In this document: positions 6,240 to 38,038 of the stretch, piece by piece
How the letters are laid out: the number at the start of each line of letters is the position of its first letter
Numbering within the stretch: the first letter of the stretch is position 1
Assembly: GCA_008632985.1 (NCBI GenBank)
Contig: QPGO01000022.1
Location: 558,001 to 622,000, forward strand
DNA from: Psammoneis japonica
Taxonomy: Eukaryota
Direction: 5' to 3'
Length of the DNA: 64,000 nucleotides
The notes under the pieces: generated by a model
The model's input: the letters and a program-made list of their open reading frames with translations, nothing else
What the model was told of the DNA's origin: nothing
The model's database searches: none
Program-made: the position numbers and the translations under genes

Positions 6240-7599
6240 ATGATGAGCAACACTGGCACAACTCCTTCGTCTTCCGCTGCATCGCCTTGTTCCGCTAGCA
6301 ATGTGTCAGCCCCTTGTCGCTATATATTCACTGAAGCAGACATGGAGTTCTTCAAGAAGTCTCCAGCCAAGATGGAATTGTTAAAAATGGTGAAAGCTAT
6401 GGGCAATTCTGTTGCGGGCTACAACAATTACACCTTTGATCCAAACAATCCTCTCGTAGCACTCAGTCCTGCCACGGCGAGTTTGCATGGATCGCTCCGA
6501 AACATGGCGACCTGGATTAAAGACATTCCTCCTAATGAAGGATTTCGACGCTTTGGAAACACAGCGTTTCGCGACTGGCATGCTCGATTGAAGCAAAGGA
6601 GTAGATCCATCGTCAAGTGTTTGCTGCAATGTCACAAGGAGCACGTCAGCAAAGACGACGTCTATGATATGAAACTATTGGAGCAGTGTTCTGAGGCTGG
6701 CTTTCATGCAGCGTCTACGAAGCGAACAGAGCAGGAAGACACGAAGCTCTCAGAGACGGACGAGGCGGTTCTTCTGGAGTTAAGAACATACTTGCATGAT
6801 TCCTTCGGTCACCAAACGCGTCTCGACTATGGCACGGGTCACGAGTCATCCTTCATGGTATTTCTGTATGCGCTTTGCAAGTTGGGATGCTTTGGAAGCG
6901 CCGGTGAAAACGACCCGCCGACGCCAACTCGTCTAAAGGCGATCGCTCTGAGCATCTTTACACAATACCTCGCTGTGACGAGAGGACTTCAAACCGACTA
7001 CATGTTGGAGCCCGCTGGATCGCATGGAGTGTGGGGCTTAGATGACTATCATTGTATTCCATTTTATTTCGGGGCATGCCAACTCATTTCCGAGGACGAA
7101 TACCCACCCAGCTCCATTCATGACAACTCAGCACTTGTTCAAATGTCTGGGAGTTACATGTACTTTGGATGCATTCAATACATCAAGGAGCTGAAGAAGG
7201 GGGTTCCTTTTTTCGAGTCGTCTCCAATTCTTAATGATATAAGCCAGCTGCCGACTTGGCATAAAGTTAGCACTGGTCTTCTGAGACTGTATGAAGGAGA
7301 AGTTCTGGACAAACGACAGGTGGTGCAGCATTTTGTTTTTGGGCAAATCTTCAAAGGTGAGTATAATTATTGTCTATATTATGCGTTTGCAAAGTTCCAG
7401 AGATCCGCAACCCTGACGTTCGTGGACCTCCTCGCTTTGATACACAGCAACTTGGACTCCCTCGGAGCAACCACGATCAGCGCCTTTGCATACATTTAAT
7501 GTCGTGCCCGGGGGAGATGAATGTATGGCGCCGTGGGCTACAGAAGAGTCAAGCGACACTGCACCGCCGACACCGACAAAAGCTCCGTGGGCAAAGTAG
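6240..7599 (+). CDS. PTPA: Serine/threonine phosphatase 2A activator (PTPA/Rrd1 family); intron 7357-7447
   Basis: Motifs RRFGNTAFRDWH, SFGHQTRLDYGTGHE and YMLEPAGSHGVWGLDDY. Splicing GTGAGT...CACAG restores a C-terminus ending TKAPWAK*. Confidence 0.93.
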
Positions 7600-9880: not shown

Positions 9881-10013
9881 CTTGCTTGTAGCAATGACAA
9901 CCGAGATAACACTCTACAGGTGCCATTTATTTCAGGTCAGACGGCCGGTCAGTGATGATGTGCGTCAGGGCGGATACGGTAGCGTAATAGGGGACTAGCA
10001 AGCGCGCCGGCAT

Positions 10014-10548
10014 GGTTCGGACAAATTGACCAGGAGTTTATGGTGGGGGTCGATTTGTCCACTATCGATTTAGAACACATAAACATGGGGTGGACAAATC
10101 TACCAGGAGTTTATGGTGGGGGTCGATTTGTCCACTATCGATTTTAAGACCACATAAACATGGGGTGGACAAATCTACCAGGAGTTTATGGTGGGGGTCG
10201 ATTTGTCCACTATCGATTTTAAGAACACATAAACATGGGGTGGACAAATCTACCAGGAGTTTATGGTGGGGGTCGATTTGTCCACTATCGATTTTAAGAA
10301 CAGATAAACATGGGGTGGACAAATCTACCAGGAGTTTATGGTAGGGGTCGATTTGTCCACTATCGATTTTAAGAACACATAAACATGGGGTGGACAAATC
10401 TACCAGGAGTTTATGGTGGGGGTCGATTTGTCCACTATCGATTTTAAGAACACATAAACATGGGGTGGACAAATCTACCAGGAGTTTATGGTGGGGGTCG
10501 ATTTGTCCACTATCGATTTTAAGAACACATAAACAAGGGGTCGAACCC
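10014..10548. repeat. Tandem array of 7 x ~75-bp palindromic units inside a MITE-like element (copy 1; right TIR partly deleted)
   Basis: Unit AAACATGGGGTGGACAAATCTACCAGGAGTTTATGGTGGGGGTCGATTTGTCCACTATCGATTTTAAGAACACAT. It carries the internal inverted repeat GTGGACAAATC/GATTTGTCCAC. Confidence 0.9.
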
Positions 10549-10656
10549 GGCCAGCCACGCACGTACATAACATTTCGCGCGTTCCATCCAAGCCAACAGC
10601 ATCTTTCGTGCGCTGCGCGAGCGTACCCGCCCGGTACAGCAGTTTGCGCTCTCACC

Positions 10657-12226
10657 ATGACCGACGTCGGCTCCCAAGGTTTTCCTGGTTATCGACATGG
10701 CTGGAGGAAGAGGACCTCATCGCCACGGCACATACTATTTGTACCGAGTTGGCGTCGAAATTTGGCCTGTTTGATTCGAGCGTTCGATCTGCGAGTATTC
10801 CTTTCGAGCGTTTGGCTAAAACTCAAGAACGAGCAGATGTGTGTGTGTACCTTGGCACTGCTTCGGAACAAGGTTCACGATTAATATCGGCGTTGGAGAA
10901 TGAAACTCCTGTACCAGTGTTGAAAATCAAAGAACCTTCTCACGACGCAGCGTTGGAAATCGCCAAATGGTGTGGGCTTGCGGATGAGCAGGTTCGACGG
11001 TGTCTACGCGAGTCTCTTGCAAAACGCAAGCAGAGCCGTCTGGTCGATGATGCTCAGCTGCAGACGAAATCTCCTAAGTACGCTCAAGCCATTGCACAGG
11101 CATACGATAGAAATGATCAAATCACCGGCGACAACATTGCTGGAGCAGCGTTGCCAGAGCGGATGAGGGGAAAGGTTCGTGATCGGTATGCTGGTGCTGG
11201 TGCAATGGTATTGGTGACGACGGACCGCCAATCAGGGTTCGATCGACACTTGGCATCCGTGCCTTACAAGGGAGCAGTGTTGAACTTGACTAGCGCCTTT
11301 TGGTTTGAAAAGACGAAGCACATTATTCCGAACCATCTCGTGGCGGTACCTCATTCCAACGTGAGCATTGTGAAACGGTGCAAGTAAGTTATTTCTTATT
11401 GGCTGGAAACAGTTTTTCATTGCCTACCACTCATTTCTTATCTCTCTTTTCGCATGGCATCAGTCCCTTTCCGATTGAATTTATAGTCCGGTAGGTTTCC
11501 TCATTGCTCGGCTCATCTCGCTTAGGAGTAAAAATCATTGTTGTTCGATTGCAACTCATACTAATGTTCTTACCTCTCTGTAGTTCTTACGTGACGGGAT
11601 CCACTTCGACCTCCATCTGGAAGAATTATCAGAATGGAGTGCGGAACTACTGCGGTCGTGAGTTGCCAGAGGGCTTGACGAAGAACGAAAAGCTGTGGGC
11701 GAACCTCCTGACACCCACAACAAAAGAGGAAGACCACGATCGCCCTATTTCTCCAGATGATTTCGTCGCAGAGGGATGGATGACACAAGAAGATTGGGAT
11801 GTTTGCGCGTCAGCCGCTCTAGAGGTATTTGCTCTCGGACAAGAAGTAGCTTCAGACCACGGTTTAATTCTCGTCGACACCAAATACGAGTTTGGGAAAG
11901 ACGAAAGTACTGGTGAGATCTTACTGATTGATGAGGTACACACACCGGATTCATCGCGTTATTGGCTAGCCAGTACATACGAACAACGCATGAGCGAGGG
12001 AAAGGAGCCGGATAATATCGACAAGGAATTTTTGCGGTTGTGGTTTCGAGACCATTGCAACCCATATGAGGACGAGACTCTGCCTGAAGCACCGCGTGAA
12101 TTAGTTCTCGAGTTGGCAAGAAGGTACATTTTACTGTATCAGTTGATAACATGGGAAGATTTTGATTTCGATGGTGTAACTGGGGAAGAGGATATCGCGA
12201 AAACCATTCAAGATTATATTATGTGA
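10657..12226 (+). CDS. purC: SAICAR synthetase with degenerate PurE-like N-terminal extension; introns 11384-11463 and 11491-11583 (27-bp micro-exon); start uncertain
   Basis: Motifs GKVRD, TDRQSGFD, spliced PFPIEFIVRSYVTGS, LVDTKYEFG, DEVHTPDSSRYW and IDKEFLR. The ATG at 10657 is not in frame with the N-terminal extension. Confidence 0.85.
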
Positions 12227-18226: not shown

Positions 18227-19732
18227 TCATTCCTCACCTTCGCACGGCCAAAGGTCGTCAAGTGCGTCGAAGCCACCAGCGTTCAACTCGTCAGTGTCAG
18301 GTCTTAGGGCCAATTGAACTTCGCGCACAAACCGACGTCTAAATCTCTTCACACCGCCTCCGAACAAGGAACAATGTGCTCGCAAGGCTTCTTCCGCGTG
18401 CTGTTTTGCAACTTGGCGGTTTCCTACACACCTCGCACAAAGTGCAGCCTGTACTCTCATGACAATTGCATTCTCATCCAACGGTGGGAGACGAGTCTCA
18501 GCGAATTCGACACATTCCTCCCACTGCGACAATGCCTCACTGGGATTACCAAGTCCATCATATGTGATTGCTCGAAGAATACGCAAGTTCTGTAAATCGC
18601 ATTGAAACCAAAGCGCACCGCTTTTGTCGATATCTATCATTTCGTCCTGTTCGTCTTCAGCAGGCTTCCCAGAGGCTTGCTCAAACAGTTCTGCAAGAGC
18701 TTCCAATCGTTCACTAGGGTCCATCGCCATAAGCTCGTTTTGAACCTCGTCATCAACTACCGGGAAGTCAGGTCCATCATCTTCATCATATTCGCTTACT
18801 CCAATGGCGCCGGGTTCTTGGAAATCCATTTGCAACATTGTCGTTCGTCTCGTGGGACTCTCACAGAGCACATCATGTTCGAGGTAGCTGATACAAATTT
18901 CGTCACCAGCATAAATATCCTGATTGGCCACAAACCACATAACGTCTCCCACAGCAAATCTTGAAGCATTCGGTTTACTATCGTGATTGAAATACGATGG
19001 CAAATGATAGAGTGCCGTTCCATCTAATGCAGCATGCCCTCCGGGACCTGGGTGAACCAGCATTTCTGGACACGTCTCCACAGACAAAGCATTGTATCGA
19101 ATCACTAGATGCAAGCGTTCTATAATGTCCTTGACGTGGTCATCTCTGACAAGGTCCGGCACCTCTAGTAACTTTGAAAGTCGATTTTCTACCTCCACAA
19201 AGACGGCATCATCTTGGCACACCCACTTTGGCAATTTCGCCGCAGTTTCATTGTCGCGAGGGAACAGGTCCGATAGTGTGTCGACCCACAAGGACGGATT
19301 CTCATAAATATCAGAAAGCAGTTTAAGCAACAAAAGCTCATTCGGCTTTGAGTCTTGCTCCTCTTCGTCTTCTTGATGGAACTCCTCCTCGTCCTGGTCC
19401 TCGTTCTCGTCCTCCTCGTCTCCAATGTCATTATCTAGTTCATGGTCGAGTTCCATTTCTTCTCGAGCCGTGAGTCCGTCATGACTTTCACTATCTATAA
19501 CGCATTCCCAGTTCATAACCATGGCGATCGGTTTGGCAACTAGCAAGACGGTTCCCGCCGAAATGTTCCGTCGTGCAAAATAACCTCTTCCGCTTTTCGA
19601 TTCCTCACGACACTCCATCAAATCTTTTGTGGACTGGCTGTCATAGTCTGTTGGAATCATGAAATTGGGACGAGTTGGATGATCTGGTTGACTAGCCACC
19701 AAGGCATCGGCCATGTCCAAGAGCGTCTCCAT
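18227..19732 (-). CDS. SET-domain (SMYD-like) lysine methyltransferase
   Basis: Motifs GRGYFARRNISAGTVLL and SYFNHDSKPNA...GDEICISY, followed by a helical TPR-like C-terminus. Confidence 0.9.
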   Translation of the reverse strand: METLLDMADALVASQPDHPTRPNFMIPTDYDSQSTKDLMECREESKSGRGYFARRNISAGTVLLVAKPIAMVMNWECVIDSESHDGLTAREEMELDHELDNDIGDEEDENEDQDEEEFHQEDEEEQDSKPNELLLLKLLSDIYENPSLWVDTLSDLFPRDNETAAKLPKWVCQDDAVFVEVENRLSKLLEVPDLVRDDHVKDIIERLHLVIRYNALSVETCPEMLVHPGPGGHAALDGTALYHLPSYFNHDSKPNASRFAVGDVMWFVANQDIYAGDEICISYLEHDVLCESPTRRTTMLQMDFQEPGAIGVSEYDEDDGPDFPVVDDEVQNELMAMDPSERLEALAELFEQASGKPAEDEQDEMIDIDKSGALWFQCDLQNLRILRAITYDGLGNPSEALSQWEECVEFAETRLPPLDENAIVMRVQAALCARCVGNRQVAKQHAEEALRAHCSLFGGGVKRFRRRFVREVQLALRPDTDELNAGGFDALDDLWPCEGEE

Positions 19733-21479
19733 GGTGGATTTCGCCTTGCCTCATTTTTTCTGTTTTATTCGTTCCTGCTTGCGTTTCCAGTTTTCAGCTT
19801 TGTGGCGGTAAGTTGAGTCGTCTCCCCGTCATACGTCAGTGCACCGTCCTTCCGCAGCGCCTGAGACGGGGGATGCCATGGATGAGGTTCCTGTGCCCGT
19901 CGGTCCTGGGTCTGAACTGCCGCAGAAGTGCATTTTTTTAAGTTGAAATCAACAATGTGAGATCTGAAAACTCCCCGTGTGCACACAAAGCATCCAAGCC
20001 CGGCTCCCCAGCATCTGCTGTTCCTTCCTGCCCCTTGCTTCTCAACCCCAGCAGGCCAGAACCCCCATTTTGAAACACTCCACAGAGCTTTGTGAACTGG
20101 CACTGGTTGGTCACTTGTTTGTCTTGTTTTGTGTTTTCATTCATGTGCAGGCCTCCAAAACAGCTTTCATCTTGCATGCTCTCATGATGCAAGAATCTGA
20201 CGAAGTGTCCAAGAGACACACCCAGCAGCCAATTTCTTGTTCTGAAGTGGCCTCAGTTTCATCAACTTGCACATGTCCATGTGTTGATTGTGGGCCTGAA
20301 TTTGATCTTTCCCTTGCACCAATCTTGACAACAGCCTCAGCTTGAATCCCATCATCTCAAACAAACCCTGCTCCTGCTTCTGTTTCAATCAGCCTCCAGC
20401 TCAAAGCCCTTGGCTGTGCTGCTGCTGGTGTTCGTGCACAAGAAAGCAAAAGTGTGTTGAGCAGATGAAATGCAATGTGGAAATGGCAAGGGGATCAACA
20501 CAATCATGCCAGCAACACATTTGCTCTGCATTGAGTCATCCTCTCAAATTCCTCACCACACTCCATCAAGTCTTTTGTGGACTGGCTGTGTCACAGTCTG
20601 TTGGAATCATGAAATTGGGGGGAGTTGGATGATCTGGTTGACCAGCCACCAAGGCATCGGCCATGTCCAAGAGCGTCTCCATGGTTGATTTTCTGTTTTG
20701 TTTGTTCCTGCTTGCATTTCCAGTTTTTTCAGTTTCGTGGCGGGAAGTTGAGTCATCTCCCTGTCATGCATCAGTGCACCGTCCTTCTGCGGCGCCCAAC
20801 TGACATGAGGGATGCCATGGATGAGGTTCCTGTGCCCGTCGGTCCTGGGTCTGAACTGCCTCAGAAGTGCATTTTTTAGAGTTGAAATCAACAATGTGAG
20901 ATCTGAAAACTCCCTGTGTGCACACAAAGCATCCAAGCCCGGCCCCCCAGCATCTGCTGTTCCTTCCTGCCCCTTGCTTCTCAACCCCAGCAGGCCAGAA
21001 CCCATTTTGAAACATTCCACAGAGCTTTGTGAACTGGCACTGGTTGGTCACTTGTTTGTCTTGTTTTGTGTTTTCATTCATGTGCATGCCTCCAAAACAG
21101 CTTTCATCTTGCATGCTCTCATGATGTGAGAATCTGACGAAATGTCCAAGAGACACACCCAGCAGCCAATTTCTTCTGAAGTGGCTTCAGTCTCATCAAC
21201 TTGCACATGTCCATGTGTTGATTGTGGGCCTGAATTTGATCTTTCCCTTGCACCAATCTTGGCAACAGCCTCAGCTTGAATCCCATCATCTCAAACAAAC
21301 CCTGCTCCTGCTTCTGTTTCAATCAGCCTCCAGCTCAAAGCCCTTGGCTGTGCTGCTGCCAGTGTTCGTGCACAAGAAAGCAAAAGTGTGTTGAGCAGAT
21401 GAAATGCAATGTGGAAATGGCAAGGGGATCAACACAATCATGCCAGCAACACATTTGCTCTGCATTGAGTTATCCTCTC
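19601..21479. repeat. ~935-bp tandem duplication that includes the 5' end and upstream region of the SET gene
   Basis: 19601-20545 aligns with 20549-21479. Confidence 0.9.
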
Positions 21480-24400
21480 ATGGTGTTTTTGTTTGTTGAG
21501 AGTTCATTGCCACACACAACAAACCAGCAGAGAGTCAGCAGCACAAGCAGATTTTTCTTGGTTGCAAGGAGAGTGTGTTTGATTTGCAGGTGCTGCAATG
21601 GGGCAGACTTGGTTCACAGGTGCTGTTGCTTCCACCATGGAGGAGAGAGTGGGCCTTTTTGGTGGTGTGATGCAGCAGGCAGCAGGCAGCTTCATGATGG
21701 TTGTTGTCATGGCAATGCTGAAAAATGGGTGCTGTTCTCACTTGACTTGTTTTCAGTTGTCATGGCAAGAACCAACTCAACAAAAGCACAAAGGCCATGT
21801 TGGCACTTGACATTCATGTCAAGATGAATGCAAGAATGAGACTGGCGCAGTGAGCTGGCCACAACTGCCCCATTGTCTTCACATGAGGAGAAGGGAAAGA
21901 CAAGCTTGCTTTGCACTGTGTTGTTGTTGTTCAAGTCTGCTGTCAGAACAGTGAGCAAATCAAAAGCAGAGCTGACCCCGGAACAGATTGCATCAAAAAT
22001 TCTGTGTGCCCAGAAAGCATGAAAAGTCCACATGAAGTGTCAATCTTTGGCCTTCTAGTGTGGCTGGTGTGCTCTCTTTGTCCCTGGCAGGTTTTGTCTC
22101 AACTGTCACAGCAGGCCAGATTTTTCCAAGCACAGCACATCTGGCATGGTGGACTTTCCAAATTCAAGTGGCAAACAACCAACACCACAATGTTGTGGCA
22201 TGGTGCACAAAGTCTCTGATGATTGTTGATGCTTGTGGTTGTGTGCTTGTCAGTTGGGCTCACATCTCACCCCAAGAAAGCTTGTGCCCATGTGTTTTTT
22301 CAACATTTTGAAGCTTTTGCATTGTTCTTTTCCATGTCAGCAAGTGAGACAGTTCAACATGCACAAAGCCAGCAAAACACAGCAATGAAAGTGTGGTTTT
22401 TGCAACATGGAAAGTGCCTGAATTCCATCTCCTCCATTCACAATTTTGGCTGCATGCACTCACACAAAATCTTGCCTTGTTGCTGCTTTCTTGAATTTTG
22501 TCAAGATGCAAAGGAGCCATTGGGGGGCTTTGTCAGAGCTCTGTTTTGCTCTTCTGTCAGACATGTTAAAAAAAACAAGTGGGCAGGAATTGTCTCTTTT
22601 GCTTTGCATCAATTCCAGCAGTCAGTGCATGATGCCTCCAGGCTTGGAGTTGAAGTCAACAATGTAAGATCCAAGAACTCCCTGCACATGCAAAGCATCT
22701 GAGAGCTTGATGCCCCCCACCTCTGTCTTTGCTCTGTTGCTGCTTCCCGTGCCCCTTTCTTCACACAGAAAGTGCCCCATGGCTTCACAAACTGCACTGA
22801 TCACTTGTTTCTTTTCCATGTGTTTTCACAGATGCAAGTGCTTCTGAAGCAGCTTTCATCTCACATGTTCATGAGGTGAGCCTGAAAGCCAAAGTGATGC
22901 ATTGCTGCACCAGCACCCAGTGTCATGCTGCTGGTGTGTGGGTGTGGCAGACGTTCCAAATGCAACAAGCAGAGATGATCAAACACAATGTCATGGTGTG
23001 GTGTCAAGTGTTTGAGCAGCCTTCAGAGCTTTGCAAGGAAGATCTTCCCATGCACTTGGTCACCACTTGGTGCCCCAGCAGGTCATTCACAACATCTTGT
23101 TAAAAAGGTGACAATCAATCTGGGGCAGATTTTTCAGGCCAGCCAAGAACCAATGTCACACCAAAATGCAAAATGCTTCAGCACCTGTGTGCAACTCTGT
23201 TGGGTGTGGTTGCAGTCATTTGCCATGCATCGTCTCAATCGTGTTTGGTTTCACCACATGCAAGCAAGGAAAACTGCAGTGGTTGTCTGTCTGTGTGATG
23301 GCTTCCATGCGCATCTTTTGTTCATTCCCACGATCTCCAGCCCAAACCCCCTTGCAAGTGGTGACACCCAATGTCTCATTGCCCATTCAATCATTTCTCT
23401 GTTCTGCCCCCCAAGGCTCTCTTGTTGAGGTGCTCTCTGAGCCATGCTGGTTGACAAAAAGGACAAAATGCTGCAGATTTGTTGGCTTGCTGCCTCTCAA
23501 TGTTGGCTTGCTGCCTCTTGAGGTCATTTGTTCACAGTGGAGGCTGGGCAAGCTGTGTGTGGAACTTGATCCACAACCTGCCTTGAAGTCAGGAAGGTTT
23601 GGCTGTTCAGGGGCCAGATTTGAGTGCAAGCATCATCTGAAGCTGGGGCAGAATGGAAGAGTTTTGGGAGTGAGCAGGCTTGTGCACATGCAACTCCTTG
23701 TTTTCCCCACTCTTGGGGTTCATCACTTTTGAGGCCCACTTTCTCATGTCCTGCATGACTGGTCTGTGTGCATGGTGGTTTGTCATGGTTGAATTTGCAA
23801 GCAGTCACGCACTGATCTTTCACATCCACCTCAGGGAGGAGCTTGACTTTAGGATCAAGTGATTTGCAGTGGCACTCATGTGCCTTTGTTTGAGTTTCCA
23901 GGCTGGTGCAGTGGCTTGCCCTGACTGGAAGCCTTGCTGCTTTTGCATTTGGGTGATGCATGTCATCCACACAATGAGTGACTGGTGTGTGCCTGGTGAA
24001 GTGCAAAGCTGATTAGAGAGTCATTCATGCCACTGTCAACATCTGCCAAGAGGGCCTTGGGCATGGATCTCACTCAATCTTTTGTCTGTTGGTCATCACA
24101 GGCATGTTTCTTGACATGACAGGCCCATGTGAGTGGGTTCTGAACAATCATGGAGTTTTTGCCTGTGACAATTGCTGGAAGAGGTGACTGACAAAGGAAT
24201 TTTGAAATTGGAAGGAGAGGGCACTGGCCCATTGGGCCATTGCAGCTTTTGTTCAATGACCTTCTTGACATTCTTGTCTGGTGAACTCTTGCCTTGTTCT
24301 TTTGCTTGCAAGTGCAGGCCAAGATGGCTGAAGCAGGGGCTGTTTTGCTTTCATTGTTTCTCTGGTGTGAGACAGGAAGAGGACAAGCAACAAAGGCCAT

Positions 24401-27400
24401 GTTGAAGTTGTTGTTTGGGGGATTGCATTGCCCCACAAGAATTCTCCAGTTTGCACACCATTGCCACCACTGCAGTGCACTGTTTGACTGCAAGTGGGCC
24501 CCACACTTGTTGTTCTTGAGGAAGTGATGCTCCTGTGCCCAGCTTTGATCCACTCTAGATGCACGTTGCTTGCAGAATTGGGAGGTGACATTTTGGAGAG
24601 TCTGGCAGGTGTCATGTGCCTCTTTTGACAAATGGCATGAAGAGGTCAGTGGTGTGTCGTTTGCCATGCACAGAGCTCTGGCATGTCCAAGAGCATCTCC
24701 ATGGTTGTTTGTTCCTGCTTGTTGCATTTCTGGCAGTTTTCAGTTTTGCAGTGGGAAAGTGAGTTGTCTCCCCATCATGTGTCAGTGCACTGTCTTCAGG
24801 GGCATCAGGGACAAGGCTCCTGTGCCCATTGGTCCTGGGCATGAACTGCTCCAGAAGTGCATTTGGAGCACTCCCAACTGGGAGGTCTGCAAGTGGTGCA
24901 GAAGATGATGACATTTGGAGTGAAAACAACAAGGTGAGATCTGAAAACTCCCATGTGCACACAAAGCATCCAAGCTTGCTCTGGTGTGGATGCCTCTTTT
25001 TTACAAAACCCAGCCCCCTGGCAACACTTGCCCAAACCCCCTTCTGCTGTTCCTTTCCACCCCTTGCTTCTCAACCCCAGTGGGCCAGAGCCTGTGAAAA
25101 TGTTCCAGGGCTGTGTGGACTGCAATGGTTGGTCAAGCCTTTGACAAAAGTGTGCAAGACACACCCAGCAGCCAATTTCTTCTAAAGCAGCAGCTTCTGT
25201 CTCAAAAATCTTGACAAACAGCTTCAACTTCAAGCTGGACAAAATTCCCATCTTGGACACACCATGTTGCTTCTTTTTCAAACAGCTGTCATTGCAAACC
25301 CCTTGTGCTGCTGCTGGTGCTCATGCACAAGAAAGCAGCAAAAAGTGTGTTGAGTGGATGAAATGTGATGTGGAAATGGTGAAGAGATCAACACAATCAT
25401 GCCGCTGACATGATTGCTGTGCATTGAGTCATCTCTTGGTGTTGTTTGTAAAAGCAGATTTTTCTTGGTTGCAGTGTGGAGCACATGTTTGACACACAGG
25501 TGCTGCACAGAGCACAGACTTGGTTCACAGGTGCTGTCACTTTAACCATGGAGGAGAGAGTGGGCCATTTTGGTGTGGCGCAGGTGGCAGCATGATTGTC
25601 ACGGCAATGCTGAAAAAAGATGATGTTCTCACTAAACTTGTTTTCAGTTGTCATGGCAAGAACCAGCTCAGCAAAAACACAAAGGTCATGCTGGCTCTCT
25701 TGACATTCACATCAAGATGCACCCAAGGACAAGGCTGGCATTGAGCAGAGTGGCTTTGGCACCACAGCACCCAAAGCCACCACAATTGGTGCCATTGTTT
25801 TTGCACAAGGAAAAGTGAAAGATGAGCAATGCTTGCTTTGCACTGTGTTGTTGTTGTTCATGCATGCTGTCAGAATTGTGAGCAAATCAAAAGCAGAGCT
25901 GACCCCACATTAGATTGCATCAAAAATTCTGTGTGTGCCAGAAAGCATGAAAAGTCCACATCAAGTGTCAATCTTCAGCCTTTTTGTGTGACTCTGGTGT
26001 TCTCTCTTTGTCCTGGGAGAAGGTTTTGTCTCAACTGTCACAGTGGGCTAGATTTTTTTACAATTGTCAGAGCCACCACACTGGCATGATGGACGATCCA
26101 AATGCAAGTGACAACCAACCAACCACAAATGTTGCACCCCAAGAAAGCTTGTGTGCTCACCAGACATGCTTTTCTCAACATTTTGGATCTTTTGCATTGT
26201 TCTTTTTCATGTCAGCAACTTCTGAGACAGTTCAACATGCACAAAGCCAGCAACACAGCAATGAACATGTGGTTTTTGCAACATGGAAAGCACCTGCATT
26301 GCATCCTCTCTGTCCAAAATTTTGGCTGTGTGCACTCACACAAAAATCTTGCCTTGTTGCTGCTTTCTTGAATTTTGTCAAGATGCAAAGGAGCTGTGGA
26401 GGGCTTTGTCAGAGCTCCATTTTGCTTCAAAACAAACAAGCAAGACATTGTTCTCTTTTGCTTTGCATTGATTCAAACAGTCAGTGCGCGACACCCCCGG
26501 GCTGAGAGTCACAAAAAAGCAAAAATGGGCTCCTGACAAACAGCGTGTGTTGAACATTTTCATTTGTCCTCATTTATTTGCTGCACATTGCTCTAATTTT
26601 TCAGCTCACTTTTGCTTTCTTGTTCCTTCTCATTGAAGTCAGAAATGCTCCATTTGCTGGATTGTGCACTTGGATTTGTTTGGCATGGCAAAAAACAAGC
26701 AAGCAGCTTTCAAAGCTTGGAAGGGAAAATGATTTTCATTGTCAGCATTTGATGTGCTTTTCAAAATGATGCACAGCAGGCATCTCTTGCACAGGAGCCA
26801 GCATCTCTGCCATCACATGGCTGCAATCTGAGCTCAAGAATGAGCTTGAAATTGATGGCTCCAGGTTGACCAAATGGCCAAAGATTGTTGGCTGCAGCCA
26901 CCTTGCTGTTTGTTTTCTAAACAAGAGGTTGACAGGCTTCCCAGTGCCCATGCCAGCACATGATGTGCTGGGGCAAGGCCTTGGACTGAACCAACATGTG
27001 GCTTGCCATTTCCCAACATTTTGTGTGTGATGTGATTGGAGTTGCGCTTGACTGTTGTCTCGGTGTTCCAGTGCTGTGGTCAATTTTTTTTTTTTGGGGG
27101 GGGGGGGGGGGGGTGCATCTTTTGTGTGCATCCCCTGTCCCCACGTGCAGCTGACAACAACAAAATGCCCTTCTGGCAACTCCGTCAATGCCCCTGCTTG
27201 CATGGAAAGGCTTTAAAAAGCACAAAGCCAGTGCAAAGATGTCCACCTGCAGCTGGGCTCTTGACGATGCTGCCGAAAGCAACAACCATGAACCCCACAT
27301 TCTTTGCCTTGTTTGACTTTCCTTGCTGGGACTGAATTGTTGTTTTTTAAGCCAGCTTGCCTTGACAAGAGGTTTTGTCACCTTTGTGTTTGGACCCTTG

Positions 27401-28490
27401 TTTGTCATCTGCAGAATGAGCAATCAGGAAGGCAGGCATCATCTGCCTGGCAAAATGTCAAAGTGCATCCTGTCTTTTGGGAGCTCCGCAAAGCCAATTG
27501 GAGAGTCATTGACATCATTGCAGACTTCAGTGTTGGCACAATTTTTTTGTGACCACAGCTGGGTGCACAACAATGTTTGCTGAGAGGACCTTGGCATTGA
27601 TCTCACTGAATCTTTTCTTGCTGGTTCTTGTCCCAGGTGATGAAATGTGTTTTTTGATCATGTGACAGACCCACAGGAGTGGGTTTGTGGAACAATCACA
27701 GATTTTTTTAATGTGGAAGGAGAGGGCACATTGGCCATGTTCCTGTTTGATGAGCCCTTGTTTTCTTTCACTTGCAAGTGCAGGTGAAGATGGCTGAAGA
27801 AGCAGGCACTGCTTTCTTCTCATTGTTTCCTGGTGAGATTGATGAATGAGCAACAAACAAGCAACGAAGTTGTTTGGAGATTGTGGCTGCCCCACAAGAA
27901 CTCTTCAGCTTGTGTTGCCACTGCAGTGCATTGTCCAAGTGCACATGGGCATGATCCAAAACTTGTTCTTGAGGACACACTCCTGTGCAAAGTTTTGATT
28001 TGCTCCAGATGTGGGTTGCTTGTAGATTGGGAGGCAAGATTTGAGAGTCTGGCAGGTGTGGCATCTCTGTCAATGGATGATGTGAACACGTCTGTGCAAT
28101 TTGCTTTGCATGGAGCCCCAGATTCTCAAAACTGTTTGTGCTTTGAAAGAAGTCATCAGCTTGGCAACAGATCATGGCATCAGTGGCAGAGCTCAGTTGT
28201 CACATTGGAAGCAATGAATTTGTCAAAGAGATTGACAAACAATTGCAGAATTTTGGTGTTGGCCACGGCTCTCAGGGAGACAGCTAAGATCTGTTTTTGT
28301 GAGCAACACCCACAAGAAAACGATGGTCCAAGGCAGTTCATCTGAGGCCTTGGGGTGCAACTTGTCTTCAGAGTGGGTTTGGTCATGATCATTGATGGCC
28401 AACAGGGTCCACTGTTAGAAAGCTTGCAGACCAGTCTTCCTCATCAAGGATCTTGCTGATGGCAAAAGGTAGAAGTGGGATGATTGGATG
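19760..28490. repeat. Degenerate repeat block strongly depleted in CpG and TpA, with internal diverged duplications
   Basis: Almost no CG or TA over ~8.5 kb. 20660-22630 resembles 24680-26490, and 24060-24620 resembles 27500-28070. Confidence 0.8.
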
Positions 28491-28743
28491 AAACGACCCC
28501 CCGCCCACCCCACGCCACACGTGCAAGACCCAATCGATTCGAAGACGTGAATTGTACATTGCATGGAGCTGACTTCGGAGTGAAGGGAACACAGGGGAAG
28601 TCGTTCTCGTTTCGATTTTGCCCAATGTGCGCTACCCTGAAGCAAAAGTCCCAACGTTGCGTTTAAGACTTTCGGAGCCAGTGCAACGACTGCATCGCCG
28701 ACCCCAATATAATAATTATGCAGCAAAAAGCAAATAACCTCTA

Positions 28744-30894
28744 TTATTTAGTTGCAGCAAGCCCTGCAAACGATTTTGCATGAAACACAGGATGCAGTTC
28801 CCGCGCAGGCTTAATGGCAGAATGATAGTCAGTCGGCCACTGCATCATGACTTTGCCGAGTAGTTTGCGCTGCAGCTGCCTCTCGTAATCCGCCATCAAC
28901 AAACTACCAGCGTAAGGAATCGCCTTCCGAATAATTTGGCTTTTCAAAAACTTGAACTTCTCCAATACGATTTCTTGTTTGGTTTCTCGTCCGACAGCTT
29001 CCAGTGGCATTTCGATCCAGTCACCAAAGTCGTTCTGCGTCAGAAAACGATGCTCGCCGTTTGATGTAGCATCATCCAGAATCGTCTCGACAACAGCATT
29101 GCTAAAATCACGCGGCAAATCTTGGTATGCAAAGTACAAGTCGGCCATGGCTGAGATTCGCTTTTGCCAACGAAGGCTGCCTGGATGAAAACTCAAAATC
29201 GAAGCATAGGCAGCAACCCGCGGTACGTTGAGGCGGTCCGATATCAAGATATCAAGCCTAGTGGGTTCCACTGCCTGTGATGACCCCAAAGATCTCTGGC
29301 TGCACTTGTTGGTAACGTTTGGAAACGGTGAAGCGGCAAAGGTCCCTGAACGGATATCAACGCCCCAAGACGAATTGTGCACACACGTTATCACTCCAAT
29401 CGCCAAAGAAAGAACAATCGCGTATATCCCACACAGTCCAAGGTACTGTTTGTAACCGTTTGACTGCTCCTTCTGGAGCTTGGTGTAACAGCGAACAGCA
29501 ACGGCGTTCAGAACCAACAAAATCCACCAACATCTTCGCAACGTACCCAAAAGAAAAGTTTGAAGTACAGACATGTGTTCATCTCCGTCTGTTACCGGGC
29601 CTTGAAGAGGCCATGGTATCCTACCCAGGAATCCGACTCGAAATCGGAGTCGCGTTTCCAGGGCCTCCCTATCGTAGCCTATCTCATGATTGACAGCATG
29701 AGAAAGCTCCATTTGAACATAATCCCATCCCCAGTTGGCGTCCTGCGGCTTGTACACGCCCAAACCTCTCAGTGCAGCCCACGGTTGTGATATGGTCGAG
29801 GGATTCCGTAAATCATTGAGGGTGTGTCCTGTCATGTCCCACCGGATCGCATACGTTGCTCCAAAGGGAAGTCTCCTTGAGAAGCGAGACGGCAAGCTAG
29901 GGTACTCTGGGCGCGAGGCAAAGGAAATCACCAGTACCACCCGATCTGGACCATTGTGATGCGCTGAGCCACGATGAATGGCATCCGAAGTGTACATGAG
30001 ACCGTCACCAGCCTTCCAAATGTCGTTTGTCGTTGTTACTTGAAACGCATGTTTGGCACACGCGTAGGAAATGGCACAACGATGCGACCCTGGACAGACT
30101 GTCGTGGCACCCATCTCGGTTGTCGTGTCTTGCAATGGAATTAAGATAGAGAAGAGGTTGACAAAGGTGCGACCATATTGGAAGGCGGACGCGCTCGCCT
30201 TTGTATCAGAATGCAAGTTTTGTGCCTTGGCTCCAACTTGGGATGTAATGGTGGATAGCTCGACAAGTGCAGGGTCGGGCCCTAATACGGCTTCCAGAGT
30301 CGGCCTTAACAATGGATGATTGCCTATCGATTCCAATACGGGGGGTATAGAGTCGTGTTCATTTGGTTTGAATGCAAAAGAGTAGCGATTCTGCCAGTTG
30401 AGAACTTGTATCTTGTCATCGTTCGTCAGATGATCGTTTTTCCATAACACCCAGTTTCTCAAGGCATCAGCATCTTTTGGATCTATGAGATTTTTGAATA
30501 TTCCCATGCCATGTCGTAGGAGGTTATCGACCGCTTGAGAAGTCGTATTCTTTGTGGGATCTAGGAGGAGCGGCCCAGGCTTGAACGCAGTGATGTCTGA
30601 CTCGTCACAACTCGCGTGGTAGTACGTCACCTCATGCTTGATCAAATTGGGGTTGGAAATCATGGATCGAGACAGCGGGTATAAGTAAGAGTCGTGAATA
30701 TGTTGGAGAACAGTCACAGTCACCAATGAGAAGGCCAAGAAAAACAGAACAAGCTTGAAAAAGAGTGCCAGAACCGCGTCGAGATCGATTGGAAAGTCGA
30801 GATCAGCACCATGCCTCGTCGTGGTTGTTGAGGTGGTTGAAACGACGCGTCGGGCCACTCTCCCATTCTCATGGACTTGCTCGTATTCCGACAT
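28744..30894 (-). CDS. Membrane-anchored PhyH-like 2-oxoglutarate/Fe(II) dioxygenase
   Basis: HxD motif (QNLHSD), IPLQDTTTEMGATTVCPGSH and GDGLMYTSDAIHRG. TM segments at the N-terminus and in the middle. Confidence 0.8.
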   Translation of the reverse strand: MSEYEQVHENGRVARRVVSTTSTTTTRHGADLDFPIDLDAVLALFFKLVLFFLAFSLVTVTVLQHIHDSYLYPLSRSMISNPNLIKHEVTYYHASCDESDITAFKPGPLLLDPTKNTTSQAVDNLLRHGMGIFKNLIDPKDADALRNWVLWKNDHLTNDDKIQVLNWQNRYSFAFKPNEHDSIPPVLESIGNHPLLRPTLEAVLGPDPALVELSTITSQVGAKAQNLHSDTKASASAFQYGRTFVNLFSILIPLQDTTTEMGATTVCPGSHRCAISYACAKHAFQVTTTNDIWKAGDGLMYTSDAIHRGSAHHNGPDRVVLVISFASRPEYPSLPSRFSRRLPFGATYAIRWDMTGHTLNDLRNPSTISQPWAALRGLGVYKPQDANWGWDYVQMELSHAVNHEIGYDREALETRLRFRVGFLGRIPWPLQGPVTDGDEHMSVLQTFLLGTLRRCWWILLVLNAVAVRCYTKLQKEQSNGYKQYLGLCGIYAIVLSLAIGVITCVHNSSWGVDIRSGTFAASPFPNVTNKCSQRSLGSSQAVEPTRLDILISDRLNVPRVAAYASILSFHPGSLRWQKRISAMADLYFAYQDLPRDFSNAVVETILDDATSNGEHRFLTQNDFGDWIEMPLEAVGRETKQEIVLEKFKFLKSQIIRKAIPYAGSLLMADYERQLQRKLLGKVMMQWPTDYHSAIKPARELHPVFHAKSFAGLAATK

Positions 30895-30993
30895 GACTAT
30901 CGTTTTTGCGTCCCCTCGTTCAAGTCGTTTGCTGCACTTTTGGTCCTTATTGGTTAGTGTAACTACCCACTGTGCAGTTCATGAAAAGAATCT

Positions 30994-31199
30994 TGGGGAA
31001 GTCTCCAGCCAGCTGCTGGCTGAAGAAATTTGTGTAGAAATTGTACTGAAAGAGTCTGTCAATCTGTGCGTTAGGGGGTTTTGGTGAACGCTGGACAGAC
31101 TCGTCTTCTTTTGCGTACGTAAAAATTGCACTTGCAAAACCCCCAAACGCACTGACGAGCAGACTTTTTTCAGCCAGCAGCTGGCTGGAGACTTCCCCC
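30994..31199. mobile_element. MITE (~206 bp) with ~34-bp TIRs and candidate 5-bp TSD AATCT
   Basis: GGGGAAGTCTCCAGCCAGCTGCTGGCTGAA at 30995 recurs in reverse complement, ending at 31198. AATCT lies at 30989-30993 and 31200-31204. Confidence 0.75.
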
Positions 31200-32349
31200 A
31201 ATCTGGAAAATCTGAATCGCAATCTCCAAATCACAAATCCACCAATGAATGGAATCCACTGCACCACACTTCGCATGTTTCACCGCGCAAAATTGGAAAT
31301 AGGAGTTCGGTGAACGCGAACTGCCGATGTGTGCGGCCTTCATCACAAGTCTCTCTCACATCTGTCACATTTTCCAATTTCGAGTTGGGTCGACCGCTGC
31401 CTTTTCCATTCAACATTGTCGATTGTCGCCACAGATGGAAGCCAAAGCTAAATCTTCATCTGCCAGCTGTGCTCAAGATGTCAGGTCCCAGGAAGCAAAA
31501 AAGGCAAGCGAAATCCCAAAGAACGGGTGCAAGGAGGAGGGGAAACAAAAGGTGGAAAAGCGCAGAAGAGTCGACAACGTGTTTGTGGCCCATGCACCTG
31601 CTCTGCTGGTGAACCACCAATCCATGAATGCTTTGATGGCTCAGAAGAGCCAGCTTGACTTTGAGAAATCTGCGAGTCTGGAAAAGAAGAAAGCACTGCC
31701 AATGATCAAGGAAGTCTGAAAGGTGGCTGCAGATGCTGTGCATGTGCAGACAAATTGCAGCAAGTCTGAACACATTGCACTGACCAAAACTCCCCATTGT
31801 CAGGTCATGGTGCTGCTTTGGCTGACCAAATTGGTGCCAACTCCTCTCTGCATCTGGCTGATGACATGAGCAGCTTTCTCCAATCCTGGCTCCCACGGCG
31901 CTCTCACCGCTCACCGCTGCTCAGAATCACCTTCAGCGTGTGCATCAGGATGTTCTCCATGGTTGTCTGCAACAGAGTGATGTCTTCTGCAGTCAACTGT
32001 TGGATGTTGCTGCAGGTTTTGAAGCAGAGAGTCATCTTCTTGCAAGTGTCATGGCGGCCAACACGTGTGGAAGCTGAAAGCTGAGCCCACACTTTTGACA
32101 GCTTGAGGACCAACGTCTGCAGAAGGAGTCGTGCGAGGTAGAGGCAGTGGTGAACACACCGAATCCTGCCTCTCTAGAGTTTGAATATCCGGTTTATCGA
32201 AATGTTGCCCGGGTGTTCTTCTACTGTAAACCCCATTCCTCTTTTGACCGTATCTTACTTCCACATGGATCATTGCCGACCAATACCGAAAAATGCCTAG
32301 TAGTATGACTTTTTAAATCACTAGATGAAATGCCACTGAGTTCCAGTTT

Positions 32350-33578: not shown

Positions 33579-34046
33579 TCCGTTTGATCTCTGTATATAT
33601 ACTTTTCAATCTCGACTTGGGGTTGTGAATTGTGAAAGCTAAGGCCGTCAGCGTCTAAAAATAGTCTTTGTCGCTCTCAAAAATGGAGACGTGTTGCGTT
33701 GCAAAGCACTGGCACAAGCACAAAAATGCTGCAAACAAAAATGACTTCCCCAATAACTTTGACTTCCCAGCGCAGGAAGAACTTCCGGGTTTCATGCATG
33801 CCACGTGGAACATAAGCACGCTGCCGTTGAGTCCCGGGTATTGCTGCGTTCAGGTCACGAGTGACTCACAACTCTCCGGGTGACCACCTCCGCTTCCACG
33901 TGTTCAACGTGTTCCAACAACGTGGAAACGAGTCGAAGTCCGACAACAAGTTCAACTTGCATCAACCTGCACAATTTCGACATCTCACATCTCCCACACA
34001 ACCTTCACTTTAGTCAGTTTCAAATACAACTCTTGTATACTACACG

Positions 34047-34734
34047 ATGAAGTTCTTCAGTTCTTTTGCCACTGCCTGTGTCCTCCTTTTCTCCTCCGGA
34101 GCACTCGCGCAAAATGAGGAGCAAGACGCACTTCGTGATTTGCAATTGGGTATGGCCGGATTGAAGCAAGCAGCTGCCGATCCCGCGCTGTTGGCACAAT
34201 TGATGCAGGATATGCAGAACCCCGAACTCATGGCAGAGGCCAAGAAAATGATGGACAATCCCGAATTCAAGAAGCAAGCAGAAAAACTAACTGGGGATAA
34301 AGCGTTCAAGGATTCCGTGAAGAAAACCGCTGAAATGCTCAAGGATCCATCCAAGGCTGCCCAAATGGAAGCAAAAATGGAACACATGATGAAGGTCGGA
34401 GAGAAGGAGCTCCAGAAGAACGCAGGTGCGGCCATGGAAGAAGCCATGGCAGCAATGGCCAACCCTGAAGTTATGGCAGAAATGACAAAAATGATGAAGG
34501 ATCCACAATTCCAGCAGCAACTCGCAGCTATGACCAAGGACCCCTCCTTCGCCAACTACATGGGCGCTGTAAGTGTTTTGGTGGTTCTGATCCTGCAGCG
34601 AAGCTTTGTCGTCATTCTCACTTAAGTTTTGTCCATTTTGTTGTCGCTATTTCTAGATGCAAGATATGATGAAGGACCCAGCAACCAAGAAAAAAATGGA
34701 ACAAATGAGCGAGAGCTTCCGAGCCGCGTTGTAA
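34047..34734 (+). CDS. Signal-peptide protein with STI1/DP-type repeats; intron 34569-34656
   Basis: MKFFSSFATACVLLFSSGALA, then repeated MxNPE/MKDP motifs. The spliced product ends SFRAAL*. Confidence 0.85.
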
Positions 34735-36614: not shown

Positions 36615-37658
36615 CTAGTGGTGACTAGTGATCGAATAGGACAGGGCGCCGAGGAGTGCTAGTGCGATACCCATTAGGTTCGTACCGGTGAAAGGATGAC
36701 CACCAAACATATAGTGGCCTGATACGATAATACCCAGCCTCCTGATCGCATCGCATGCACCGTAGGTAATCGGAGCAACGAGTCCAACGAACATGAACGA
36801 CAAAACGTATTCTACATGGTAGGCAACCACAGCCATGTATGACAACCACAGAGGCGGATCCCTATATTTTGGGTCCATTGACTTTGATCCGCTGTATTTC
36901 TCTCGAACCGAATGACTCACGGCCATCATACTTGTAATGACAAAACCAACAAAGACCATCGCACGTTGCGCTTCCGGTCCAGCAATTCCTGTTTTGCTCA
37001 TTATACGTTTGCTGCTTACATTTAAAGCGCTTTGGGCTGCCATTGAGGCGATTGAAGCAAGAAATCCGACCTTTTCAAAGTGCGGGTGATCCCAGGACGC
37101 AGCCGCAATCCCTAGTGCAATTGGTATCAACGAAAGCAGAACTGGGATCTTTGGTAACGCCTTTTGACCATCGAGCAACAAAGTTAAAAGAACTGTCACT
37201 AGCGGAATGCCACATTTGGTTGTATAAGTCAAGGAAATTCCAATTCGGTCAAGACTGACCGAATTGGAGTAGTTGGCAAGAAAAAGAAATGAAGCCGGGA
37301 TTATAAAATCTGGAACGGCGGCAATCGTGTCACTGAGTCTTCCGATTACGTCAAAGTCTTTATGAGCTAGCAAACCCAACAAAAGAGATCCCCTGAATCG
37401 CCTCAGCGTCAGAAGGTTAGGGCGGGACAAGGAAGTAGCGACTGAAACCTCTTGTGTGGATTCAGAGCCAGGTAGCGGTGGTTGCCATTTCAGGAACTTT
37501 GTAGTGGAGTATGTTGTGAGGAGCGCAGACGATGCAATCCAAAGCCCGCCAACAACGTTCACATTATTCGCAACAGAAGTCAGTACTCCCGGTGCTGCAC
37601 CCACAATCTCAGGAGCAGCGGATGACATCGTTTGGAAGGCCGGTGCAGTAGGTGTCAT
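36615..37658 (-). CDS. Triose-phosphate/phosphate-translocator family (DMT superfamily) transporter
   Basis: 8-10 TM segments. Motifs SLTYTTKCGIP and VAPITYGACDAIRR. Confidence 0.75.
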   Translation of the reverse strand: MTPTAPAFQTMSSAAPEIVGAAPGVLTSVANNVNVVGGLWIASSALLTTYSTTKFLKWQPPLPGSESTQEVSVATSLSRPNLLTLRRFRGSLLLGLLAHKDFDVIGRLSDTIAAVPDFIIPASFLFLANYSNSVSLDRIGISLTYTTKCGIPLVTVLLTLLLDGQKALPKIPVLLSLIPIALGIAAASWDHPHFEKVGFLASIASMAAQSALNVSSKRIMSKTGIAGPEAQRAMVFVGFVITSMMAVSHSVREKYSGSKSMDPKYRDPPLWLSYMAVVAYHVEYVLSFMFVGLVAPITYGACDAIRRLGIIVSGHYMFGGHPFTGTNLMGIALALLGALSYSITSHH

Positions 37659-38038
37659 TGATCATGTCACGGCGCGGCGACCGGCGACCAACCAAAGATT
37701 TCGACTGACGATTGAGAATTTGAGAGGCATGACACAACATCACACACGCGCGCGACGCGATGTTGATGTTCGAGTTCTCTTTGTTTGATGTCATGACCAG
37801 ACCTAAGCTCATTACCCATTAGGTCTGTTCCAGAAAATCAATTCGAATGAAGGGAAACAACTGCGTACTACAAGAGCACAATCAGAAAAGGTAGAACAAG
37901 TAGCTACAACGTAGGGTGTTTAATTGCAGCGCGGAAATAACTGGACTGGAAACGAAAGGCAGCGACAAACTTGTGGGAAATCAACGAGTTGTCAACTCTC
38001 GGAACCCCCAAGCTCTCAGCCATCTACTGGATATCACG

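Follow-up and report, generated by a model that had tools for sequence, protein, structure and literature searches.

To our knowledge, no cellular process that specifically rewrites TpA in chromosomal DNA was known before a preprint of 2026. Here we analyzed a 64-kb stretch of the diatom Psammoneis japonica (assembly GCA_008632985.1, contig QPGO01000022.1, positions 558,001 to 622,000; hereafter the window), in which discrete domains are nearly free of TpA (TA) and rich in TpG (TG) and CpA (CA). The domains are the interiors of two transposons, a single-copy intergenic block of 8.7 kb and two or more further blocks. Comparison of sequences makes it highly likely that they record near-saturating, strand-symmetric conversion of TA to TG/CA that is positional in its targeting, graded by context, and both faster than and separable from the decay of CpG (CG).

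The closest described system is the hypermutation of TpA to TpG/CpA in integrated viral DNA of Bigelowiella natans (Mettrop et al., bioRxiv 10.64898/2026.01.13.699255). According to the main text of that preprint, 231 of 302 nuclear point mutations in 15 mutation-accumulation lines fell in two integrated viral regions; 230 of these 231 were A->G or T->C, and the GC-biased ones were all on TpA per the authors. For a member of this kind, de novo mutations would be expected in culture at rates of 1e-7 to 1e-6 for each site and generation. The same source describes 124 genomic clusters that are depleted in TpA and enriched in CpA and TpG, reports an enrichment of reverse-transcriptase and DDE domains among low-TpA genes, and proposes an ADAT2-like deaminase; its main text makes no mention of 'diatom', 'stramenopile', 'trinucleotide' or 'flanking'. 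A diatom report of TpA hypermutation was not found in the literature searched, where subscription journals lay outside coverage. An initial annotation of the window had taken its signature for a candidate undescribed process, a claim that the B. natans report overtakes. The window is best filed as TpA hypermutation in a diatom, of the kind just reported in a chlorarachniophyte, with added detail on context, rate and targeting.

TA is nearly erased from discrete blocks

Across the whole window, the observed/expected ratio (o/e) is 0.45 for TA and 0.82 for CG. Segmentation of the window defined six TA-poor blocks:

2651-6300: TA-poor block, 50 TA (o/e 0.21), CG o/e 0.81
19851-28550: main TA-poor block, 28 TA (o/e 0.047), 59 CG (o/e 0.12), 1053 TG (o/e 1.75), 926 CA (o/e 1.92)
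30701-32150: TA-poor block, 14 TA (o/e 0.15), CG o/e 0.61
33801-34500: weak additional TA-poor block, 12 TA (o/e 0.28), CG o/e 0.77
51751-55700: TA-poor block, 27 TA (o/e 0.17), CG o/e 0.74
62151-64000: TA-poor block continuing past the window end, 3 TA (o/e 0.03), CG o/e 0.41

Under a null set by the background TA frequency of the window itself (0.040 per step), the main block holds 28 TA against ~348 expected (P=9.3e-113), and four further blocks show deficits at P=1.9e-21, 2.4e-12, 6.8e-39 and 1.3e-28. All of the TA-poor, TG/CA-rich blocks that the initial annotation had placed at about these positions are recovered by the segmentation and by these P values. The longest run without TA covers 938 bp (19939-20877), and a second of 690 bp (31449-32139) lies within block 30701-32150. 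Inspection of 1-kb windows across 20001-28000 reveals an o/e of 0.01-0.08 for TA, 0.02-0.21 for CG, 1.60-1.98 for TG and 1.72-2.18 for CA. Block edges are sharp, with composition switching over 100-300 bp. Flanking genes have a TA o/e of ~0.45-0.75 and a CG o/e of ~0.9-1.2, which agrees with the normal neighbouring composition described earlier.

Per-step frequencies in the main block indicate an exchange confined to pyrimidine-purine (YR) steps. Relative to background, TA falls from 0.040 to 0.003 and CG from 0.058 to 0.005, and TG+CA rise from 0.136 to 0.229, such that a combined TA and CG deficit of 0.090 nearly equals a TG+CA surplus of 0.093. The YR sum is 0.237 in the main block versus 0.235 in the background. 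Given this unchanged total and the match between loss and gain, the main block is explained by transitions inside YR steps only. GC content (0.44-0.50, the same as in the flanks) does not move because there is no general A:T->G:C drift. Percentages for AA (7.5% versus 8.1% in the background), AT (5.5% versus 6.2%) and TT (10.1% versus 7.9%) stay near background, and the persistence of these steps claimed in the initial annotation holds. The corresponding values are 6.3% versus 6.2% for AG and 5.4% versus 7.3% for GA, and GG lies near background.

Copies and homologs point to conversion of TA to TG/CA

The main block is non-coding or degraded and fills the intergenic space from the 5' end of a SET-domain gene to the 3' end of a PhyH-domain gene. 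It contains local repeats that allow ancestral and derived states to be compared:

18227-19750, minus strand: SET-domain gene (Pfam SET 2.4e-11) of normal composition, whose first codons give the ancestral state for A2 and A3
19600-20546: repeat copy A1, whose left ~270-340 bp are the functional 5' coding sequence and promoter of the SET gene
20548-21480: repeat copy A2, duplicated from A1 (92.9% over 955 bp) and carrying a defunct start of the SET gene
24682-25433: repeat copy A3, older, with 64-79% identity to A1/A2
21309-24650: repeat unit B1, aligning to B2 at ~70-84% identity
25268-28500: repeat unit B2, aligning to B1 at the same identity
28744-30978, minus strand: PhyH-domain gene (Pfam PhyH 5.4e-07) of normal composition, right neighbour of the main block

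In A1, the part derived from the SET gene is normal in TA and CG and the remainder is TA-free. Between A1 and A2, the SET-gene part kept none of 6 TA (2 became CA, 2 TG and 2 other) and 7 of 18 CG; a Tyr codon of the gene, TAT, reads TGT in A2. The remaining sites differ at 9 of ~280 positions in the gene-derived part and at 12 of 601 in the rest, which was TA-free already, and the intact parent copy of the gene, ~950 bp from A2, kept its TA. Ordinary host sequence thus lost all of its TA once placed in the domain, over a time in which 2-3% of other sites changed. A3 likewise has TG/CA at positions where A1 reads TA/CG. Alignment of B1 with B2 yields 31 discordant CA-versus-TG dinucleotides beside 236 concordant ones, compared to 0 discordant in a control duplication (described below). 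Such discordant pairs indicate that an ancestral palindromic CG or TA mutated independently in each copy.

Protein conservation provides a further comparison within the transposon at the left of the window:

1818-6106, plus strand: DNA transposon with 103-nt terminal inverted repeats at 1818-1920 and 6004-6106
2424-4514, plus strand: DUF7869 transposase open reading frame (ORF), 696 aa (Pfam DUF7869 1.8e-18)

The transposase was aligned (MAFFT) to the 95 homologs of at least 450 aa among 150 listed, with the 55 shorter ones dropped. Tyr is kept in 3 of 10 consensus-Tyr columns and is replaced by Cys in 4 (TGT/TGC), His in 1 (CAT), Asn in 1 and Gly in 1, and a YY pair in two 94%-conserved columns has become CC. 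Of the other conserved columns, 143 of 179 match the consensus (Fisher P=0.0014 versus Tyr), where Phe (11/12), Gly (19/20) and Asn (10/11) are retained. A single protein among the 95 homologs, P0190, shares the Tyr loss, with 0 of 10 kept, 6 Cys and 3 His. P0190 is encoded at positions 352-2202 of metagenome locus L056 and contains 0.5% Tyr, 4.9% Cys and 4.7% His.

We examined 80 metagenome loci encoding relatives of the transposase, and 79 of them have a TA o/e of 0.48-0.90; the transposase family is therefore not TA-poor, the origin that the initial annotation had named as fatal to its proposal. Locus L061 has an o/e of 0.02 for TA, 0.27 for CG and 1.84 for TG/CA, and aligns with L077, which is normal in TA, at 80% identity over 1,071 bp. 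From L077 to L061, 64 aligned TA steps gave 0 kept, 31 TG, 29 CA and 4 other, and 8 of 15 CG were kept; both TA that remain in L061 are CTAG. A>G changes per A number 61/129 after T versus 10/189 after A, 10/140 after G and 23/173 after C, the last being inflated by CA-versus-TG double differences. The excess at TA over other A contexts, on which the proposal also depended, is thus present.

Four independent lines of comparison indicate that the direction of change is TA->TG/CA. The second process postulated earlier, acting besides 5-methylcytosine (5mC) deamination and converting TpA to TpG/CpA, finds its support in A1/A2, the Tyr test, the YR balance and the L077-L061 pair. An account without mutagenesis would have foreign or transposon DNA arrive TA-poor, or have TA (UpA) removed by selection, and avoidance of UpA and CpG does occur in many viruses and mRNAs (search-listed papers PMC3829696 and PMC8420353). 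We hold this account to be very improbable, given 79 of 80 family loci with normal TA, the replacement of conserved Tyr including the invariant-like YY, a host gene fragment that lost TA after being copied into the main block, discordant CA/TG pairs between B1 and B2, and o/e values of 0.03-0.05 that lie far beyond the selection-driven biases we know of.

Context is graded and both strands are hit equally

Pooled over the blocks (18.6 kb), surviving TA steps fall into 4 RTAY, 63 mixed and 37 YTAR contexts (R, purine; Y, pyrimidine), compared to 474, 880 and 320 in the background (RTAY versus YTAR, Fisher P=1.5e-10; RTAY versus mixed, P=8e-8). In the main block alone, the 28 survivors comprise 0 RTAY, 8 mixed and 20 YTAR. 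Survival relative to background by tetranucleotide is as follows:

GTAT/ATAC and ATAT: 0
GTAC: 0.07
ATAG/CTAT and ATAA/TTAT: 0.08
CTAG: 0.16
CTAC/GTAG: 0.20
GTAA/TTAC, TTAG/CTAA and TTAA: 0.28-0.30 (TTAA 0.30)

Context is graded, where RTAY is erased first, mixed contexts next and YTAR last. Under a model in which the A of 5'-TAY-3' is converted, the expected change in the main block is +33.9/kb for YTGY and +13.7/kb for RTGR, by hand arithmetic on dinucleotide-class counts that assumes an ancestral composition like the window background; the observed gains are +33.4 and +13.4. An alternative model, in which the purine at -2 decides, predicts the reverse of the observed YTGY and RTGR gains. 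Mixed sites between L077 and L061 follow the TAY model by 24 versus 10 (P=0.024). The products thus fit conversion of A in 5'-T-A-Y-3', and the loss of RTAY beyond that predicted for two independent TAY strands suggests that both flanks contribute.

Strands are equally hit, as reflected by 31 TG versus 29 CA from L077 to L061 and 1053 TG versus 926 CA in the main block. These ratios bear on ADAR-like adenosine-to-inosine (A-to-I) hyper-editing of retrotransposon RNA, fixed by reverse transcription. ADAR prefers U 5' of the edited A (bioRxiv 10.64898/2026.01.13.699255, main text), as the TA specificity would ask; the strand equality, the hits on a cut-and-paste DNA transposon and on a single-copy intergenic block, and the mutation in place of a SET gene fragment leave this route hardly credible.

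Loss of TA is separable from CpG decay

All TA-poor blocks show some CpG loss (CG o/e 0.12-0.81), and within both transposons the TA-poor and CG-reduced zones coincide, with element ends normal in both. TA was lost with CpG largely kept in blocks 2651-6300 and 51751-55700 (TA o/e 0.17-0.21, CG o/e 0.74-0.81) and in L056. The latter holds two TA-poor blocks (TA o/e 0.04-0.15, CG o/e 0.39-0.86) separated by 2.5 kb of normal DNA with low-complexity ORFs only. The reverse case, CpG decay with TA kept, is represented by L077 (TA o/e 0.60-0.90, CG o/e 0.21-0.61). Where timing is possible, TA was lost before CG, with 0/6 versus 7/18 kept from A1 to A2 and 0/64 versus 8/15 from L077 to L061. As judged from these end states, TA loss outpaces CpG decay and can occur apart from it.

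Deamination of 5mC resembles the TA process in affecting the same blocks and yielding the same products, TG and CA, and differs in that it cannot remove TA. As a full account it was rejected on the fall of TA from 0.040 to 0.003 per step and on the blocks with CG at 0.74-0.81 yet TA at 0.17-0.21.

A coupling of the two processes was also considered, in which mismatches from 5mC deamination in methylated DNA trigger error-prone patch repair by a Pol eta-like polymerase (WA->WG; W, A or T). The Pol eta hotspot includes TA, its motif being WA, and TA-poor zones do coincide with zones of partial CpG decay. A WA motif should lower AA and raise AG and GA; AA in the main block is instead not depleted, AG is not enriched and GA is lower than background. 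Together with the ratio of A>G after A (10/189) to that after T (61/129), and with the loss of TA from L056 where CpG is largely intact, these values make this candidate of the initial annotation very unlikely.

As a separate observation, loci L077, L063, L080 and L066 have a CG o/e of 0.0-0.36 with a near-normal TA o/e of 0.48-0.73, a pattern indicating that CpG decay without TA loss is common in this transposon family.

Targeting appears to follow domains

A segmental duplication within the window served as a control for the effect of repetition:

37619-41808: copy 1 of the 4.2-kb control duplication, normal in TA and CG
44792-48966: copy 2 of the control duplication, normal in TA and CG

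The copies lie 7 kb apart and share 97.3% identity by BLAST and 98.8% over filtered columns, with 0 discordant CA/TG pairs. K-mer depth places the main block at single copy (~62-108 versus 61-66 in the flanks), apart from one bin at depth 579 that corresponds to a short high-copy piece near 24869-24905. A duplication trigger was rejected, since the main block was hit at single-copy depth and the 98.8% identical duplication was spared with normal TA. For the same reasons, the description of the process as repeat-restricted in the initial annotation is not borne out. Targeting looks domain-based, or positional, and not duplication-triggered.

The ~49 differences within the control duplication include 13-14 TA<->TG/CA and 9-12 CG<->TG/CA exchanges (lower values over filtered columns, higher over all columns). 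The TA alleles are RTAY in 7 of 14 and YTAR in 0 of 14, and the split of TA between copy 1 and copy 2 (10 versus 4) is not significant alone. A low level of the same process may act outside the blocks.

A second duplicated segment (9175-10664 and 43206-44795) has 91-98% identity and contains 75-bp tandem arrays of 6-7 units (9961-10619 and 44024-44756) plus a 102-bp repeat. Its composition is normal except for low GC-step and high AC-step ratios.

Transposons and retroelement

Mutated domains do not coincide with element boundaries, given that the DNA transposon is hit in its interior only and a retroelement in its core only. The transposon interior (~2718-5717) is TA-poor (o/e 0.05-0.26), and its ends, 1818-2717 (~900 bp) and 5718-6106 (~390 bp), have a TA o/e of 0.49-0.77 with a CpG o/e of 1.1-1.6, except for 0.72 in bin 2418-2717. 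The second element is as follows:

51080-56039, minus strand: degenerate non-LTR (long terminal repeat) retroelement, four overlapping frames with a reverse-transcriptase (RT) match

Its RVT_1 match (E=2.7e-4) is under the curated cutoff. The core (~51800-55700) is TA-poor with CpG mostly kept, and the RT ORF contains 2 Tyr in 609 residues, 6.2% His and 4.1% Cys. Together with 3 of 10 Tyr kept in the transposase, this agrees with the destruction of Tyr codons and the damage to transposon genes proposed earlier. A near-length search returned no RT ORF homologs at E<=1e-5. The sole alignment to a solved structure (8c8j_A, E=2.1) places 'SCIDD' opposite 'LFADD', which is suggestive and was not used as evidence. 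Across 52001-56000, GC skew is +0.39 to +0.41 and AT skew +0.25 to +0.37 on the plus strand; the coding strand is accordingly pyrimidine-rich, a skew unrelated to TA loss.

Contents of the main block and neighbouring genes

Two of the blocks are transposons, and the main block, 30701-32150 and 62151-64000 contain no gene recognisable by Pfam. Among 54 main-block ORFs of at least 75 aa, no Pfam match reached the curated cutoff, the single match being a sub-cutoff HPS3_C (E=0.0078). The same held for 84 such ORFs from the main block, 30600-32300, 33700-34600 and 62100-64000, where sub-threshold matches were HPS3_C (0.0078) and, on one ORF, GerD (5.2e-05), STI1-HOP_DP and CO_dh. Stop triplets on the plus strand of the main block number 14 TAA, 10 TAG and 219 TGA.

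Block 30701-32150 contains a ~170-bp high-copy repeat (~31026-31200) at a depth of ~2200-2600 (2220-2578) versus ~62. This piece and the one at 24869-24905 show many loose contig ends and are high-copy dispersed repeats inside two TA-poor blocks. A neighbouring PTPA gene has named homologs that are all from diatoms (Mayamaea, Epithemia, Fistulifera and Odontella, plus organism labels cut to 'Helico' and 'Cosc') at 46-59% identity; the best match overall, outside this named set, has 64%. These homologs agree with the diatom host that the initial annotation had assumed. One further gene adjoins the TA-free block that starts at 62151, with no link claimed:

61022-62107, minus strand: zinc-finger gene of the C2H2 double-stranded RNA-binding 'jaz' type (Pfam zf-met 7.7e-11, zf-C2H2_jaz 4.3e-10)

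Support for the bases

DNA run X1 contains 91% of the sampled k-mer words of the main block, and X1 contigs at a k-mer depth of ~62-66 reproduce the block with 0-1 differences per contig:

21441-22374: 0 differences
22488-24897: 1 difference
24876-26252: 0 differences
26365-27076: 0 differences
27233-31023: 1 difference

Single-copy differences occur at 23808 (CG/TG), 27215 (TA/TG), 27232 (TG/CG) and 27275 (CG/CA). All four are on CG or TA, the two hypermutable steps, and two of them, including 27215, are at half depth. The half-depth TA/TG site at 27215, like the loss of 6 of 6 TA in A2 against ~2-3% divergence at other sites, is a hint of de novo change at TpA. Differences at 21087 and 21262 represent A1/A2 cross-mapping. 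Runs X2 and X3 give little or no cover of the main block, and no RNA runs with main-block words were among the matches listed.

A sequencing or base-calling artefact of heavily modified DNA, a danger that the initial annotation had itself raised, could be entertained since the platforms of the assembly and of run X1 are not on record. X1 may in addition be the assembly's own sample, such that its agreement is not independent proof. Two separate metagenome assemblies, L056 and L061, carry the same signature and lend the bases independent support, as do the Tyr->Cys/His replacements, which follow the codon table. With the X1 contigs showing the same bases as the window, and the same signature present in Illumina mutation-accumulation data of B. 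natans (bioRxiv 10.64898/2026.01.13.699255, main text), we consider an artefact extremely unlikely.

Proposed mechanism

A deaminase-fold enzyme, TadA/ADAT2-like or other, may be recruited to silent, CpG-methylated chromatin and there deaminate adenine in DNA to hypoxanthine, which would be read as G at the next replication. A->G within TpA on one strand would give TA->TG, and on the other strand would read as TA->CA. Enzymatic adenine deamination is our favoured guess for the chemistry, one that we place just short of an even chance. The strict requirement for a 5'-T and the preference for a 3'-pyrimidine are compatible with it, and TadA-type enzymes target U-A-C. The process would be host-driven and aimed at silent or foreign chromatin.

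The same end state could be reached through thymine, as A->G at TAY is T->C at RTA on the opposite strand. Here, oxidation or hypermodification of T in 5'-R-T-A-3' within silent chromatin (to 5-hydroxymethyl- or 5-formyl-uracil, or to a form like base J) would lead to mispairing with G at replication, or to mis-repair, and hence to T->C. Dinoflagellate 5-hydroxymethyluracil and kinetoplastid base J favour a T followed by A and are marks of silent DNA; 5-formyluracil is known to mispair with G. We know of no such modification in diatoms or chlorarachniophytes, however, and short-read contigs read plain C/G, indicating a change fixed in the sequence and not a standing modification. The thymine route is therefore judged unlikely.

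Several points weigh against our reading as a whole, beyond the uncertain provenance of X1. The A1/A2 comparison rests on 6 TA sites, 2 of which became GA/AG and not TG/CA, and the product-class arithmetic assumes that the main-block ancestor resembled the window background. YTAR resistance is not absolute, with 8 of 8 YTAR lost in L061, and L056, L061 and L077 are metagenome loci with no host taxon assigned. The RT 'CIDD' motif depends on the E=2.1 alignment. Invader defence is unproven for the main block, in which no foreign or transposon gene could be recognised by Pfam. All TA loss in this genome is read from end states, and the silent, methylated chromatin state of the blocks is presumed.

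Conversion of TA to TG/CA cannot create a stop codon (TAA and TAG become TGA, CAA, CAG or TGG), and hit genes would thus stay open as they lose Tyr; hit transposon genes also lose other TA-containing codons. Because hit transposases stay open, gene callers record them as 'proteins', P0190 among them, and public protein sets come to hold Tyr-free, Cys/His-rich sequences. Methods based on dinucleotides may mistake such blocks for foreign DNA. Base-editing research would also have an interest in a natural DNA A-to-G editor whose context is defined.

Comparison with known systems

Fungal repeat-induced point mutation (RIP; Neurospora and others) resembles the process as we read it: in both, the host drives transitions in transposons to local saturation, at specific dinucleotides and within sharp edges. 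In contrast to the process described here, RIP makes TpA from CpA, creates stop codons and lowers GC, where the diatom blocks lose TpA, cannot gain stops in this way and keep their GC content. RIP is also triggered by duplication, as opposed to a window in which a 98.8% duplication was spared and a single-copy main block was hit. Membership in RIP was rejected on two grounds: TpA is destroyed rather than created, and duplication is not the trigger.

APOBEC3, acting on retroelement DNA, and ADAR, acting on double-stranded RNA, follow the same logic as the proposed process, in which an enzyme inactivates invaders by editing bases in a short sequence context. APOBEC enzymes differ in editing C in TC/CC on single-stranded cDNA with a strand bias, and ADAR in editing RNA; here, A:T pairs in chromosomal DNA appear to be changed in place and on both strands.

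The likeness to B. natans, as described in the main text of the preprint, is far closer. In both systems the changes are transitions alone, all TpA->TpG/CpA, and are confined to discrete regions of an otherwise normal genome; both leave a long-term footprint that is depleted in TpA, enriched in CpA and TpG, and accompanied by reverse-transcriptase and DDE-transposase domains. An adenine deaminase is proposed, and unproven, in both. The host is a rhizarian chlorarachniophyte there and a stramenopile diatom here, and mutations were recorded live there, as opposed to end states only here. Erasure is far more complete in the diatom (TA o/e 0.03-0.05, compared to a Rho of 0.45 in the nucleocytoplasmic large DNA virus region of B. 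natans) and is accompanied by CpG decay. The diatom also shows an extended context (RTAY > mixed > YTAR; A of TAY), for which the main text there has no counterpart. By analogy, the two are probably the same kind of process.

The window adds constraints beyond the main text of the preprint, namely an extended context, equal hits on both strands, a rate above that of CpG decay, the occurrence of either process without the other, and positional targeting. A saturated footprint in a diatom, on another supergroup branch and from a group of major ocean primary producers, suggests that the process is widespread and not the curiosity of a single alga. It is possible, and we put it forward tentatively as something short of probable, that diatoms carry a chromatin-domain-guided DNA adenine-editing defence with RTAY/TAY preference that is independent of cytosine methylation, outpaces CpG decay, fossilises transposons without stops and shares its ancestry with the Bigelowiella process. 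Were that shared ancestry true, TpA editing would be an ancient genome-immunity mechanism across stramenopiles and rhizarians.

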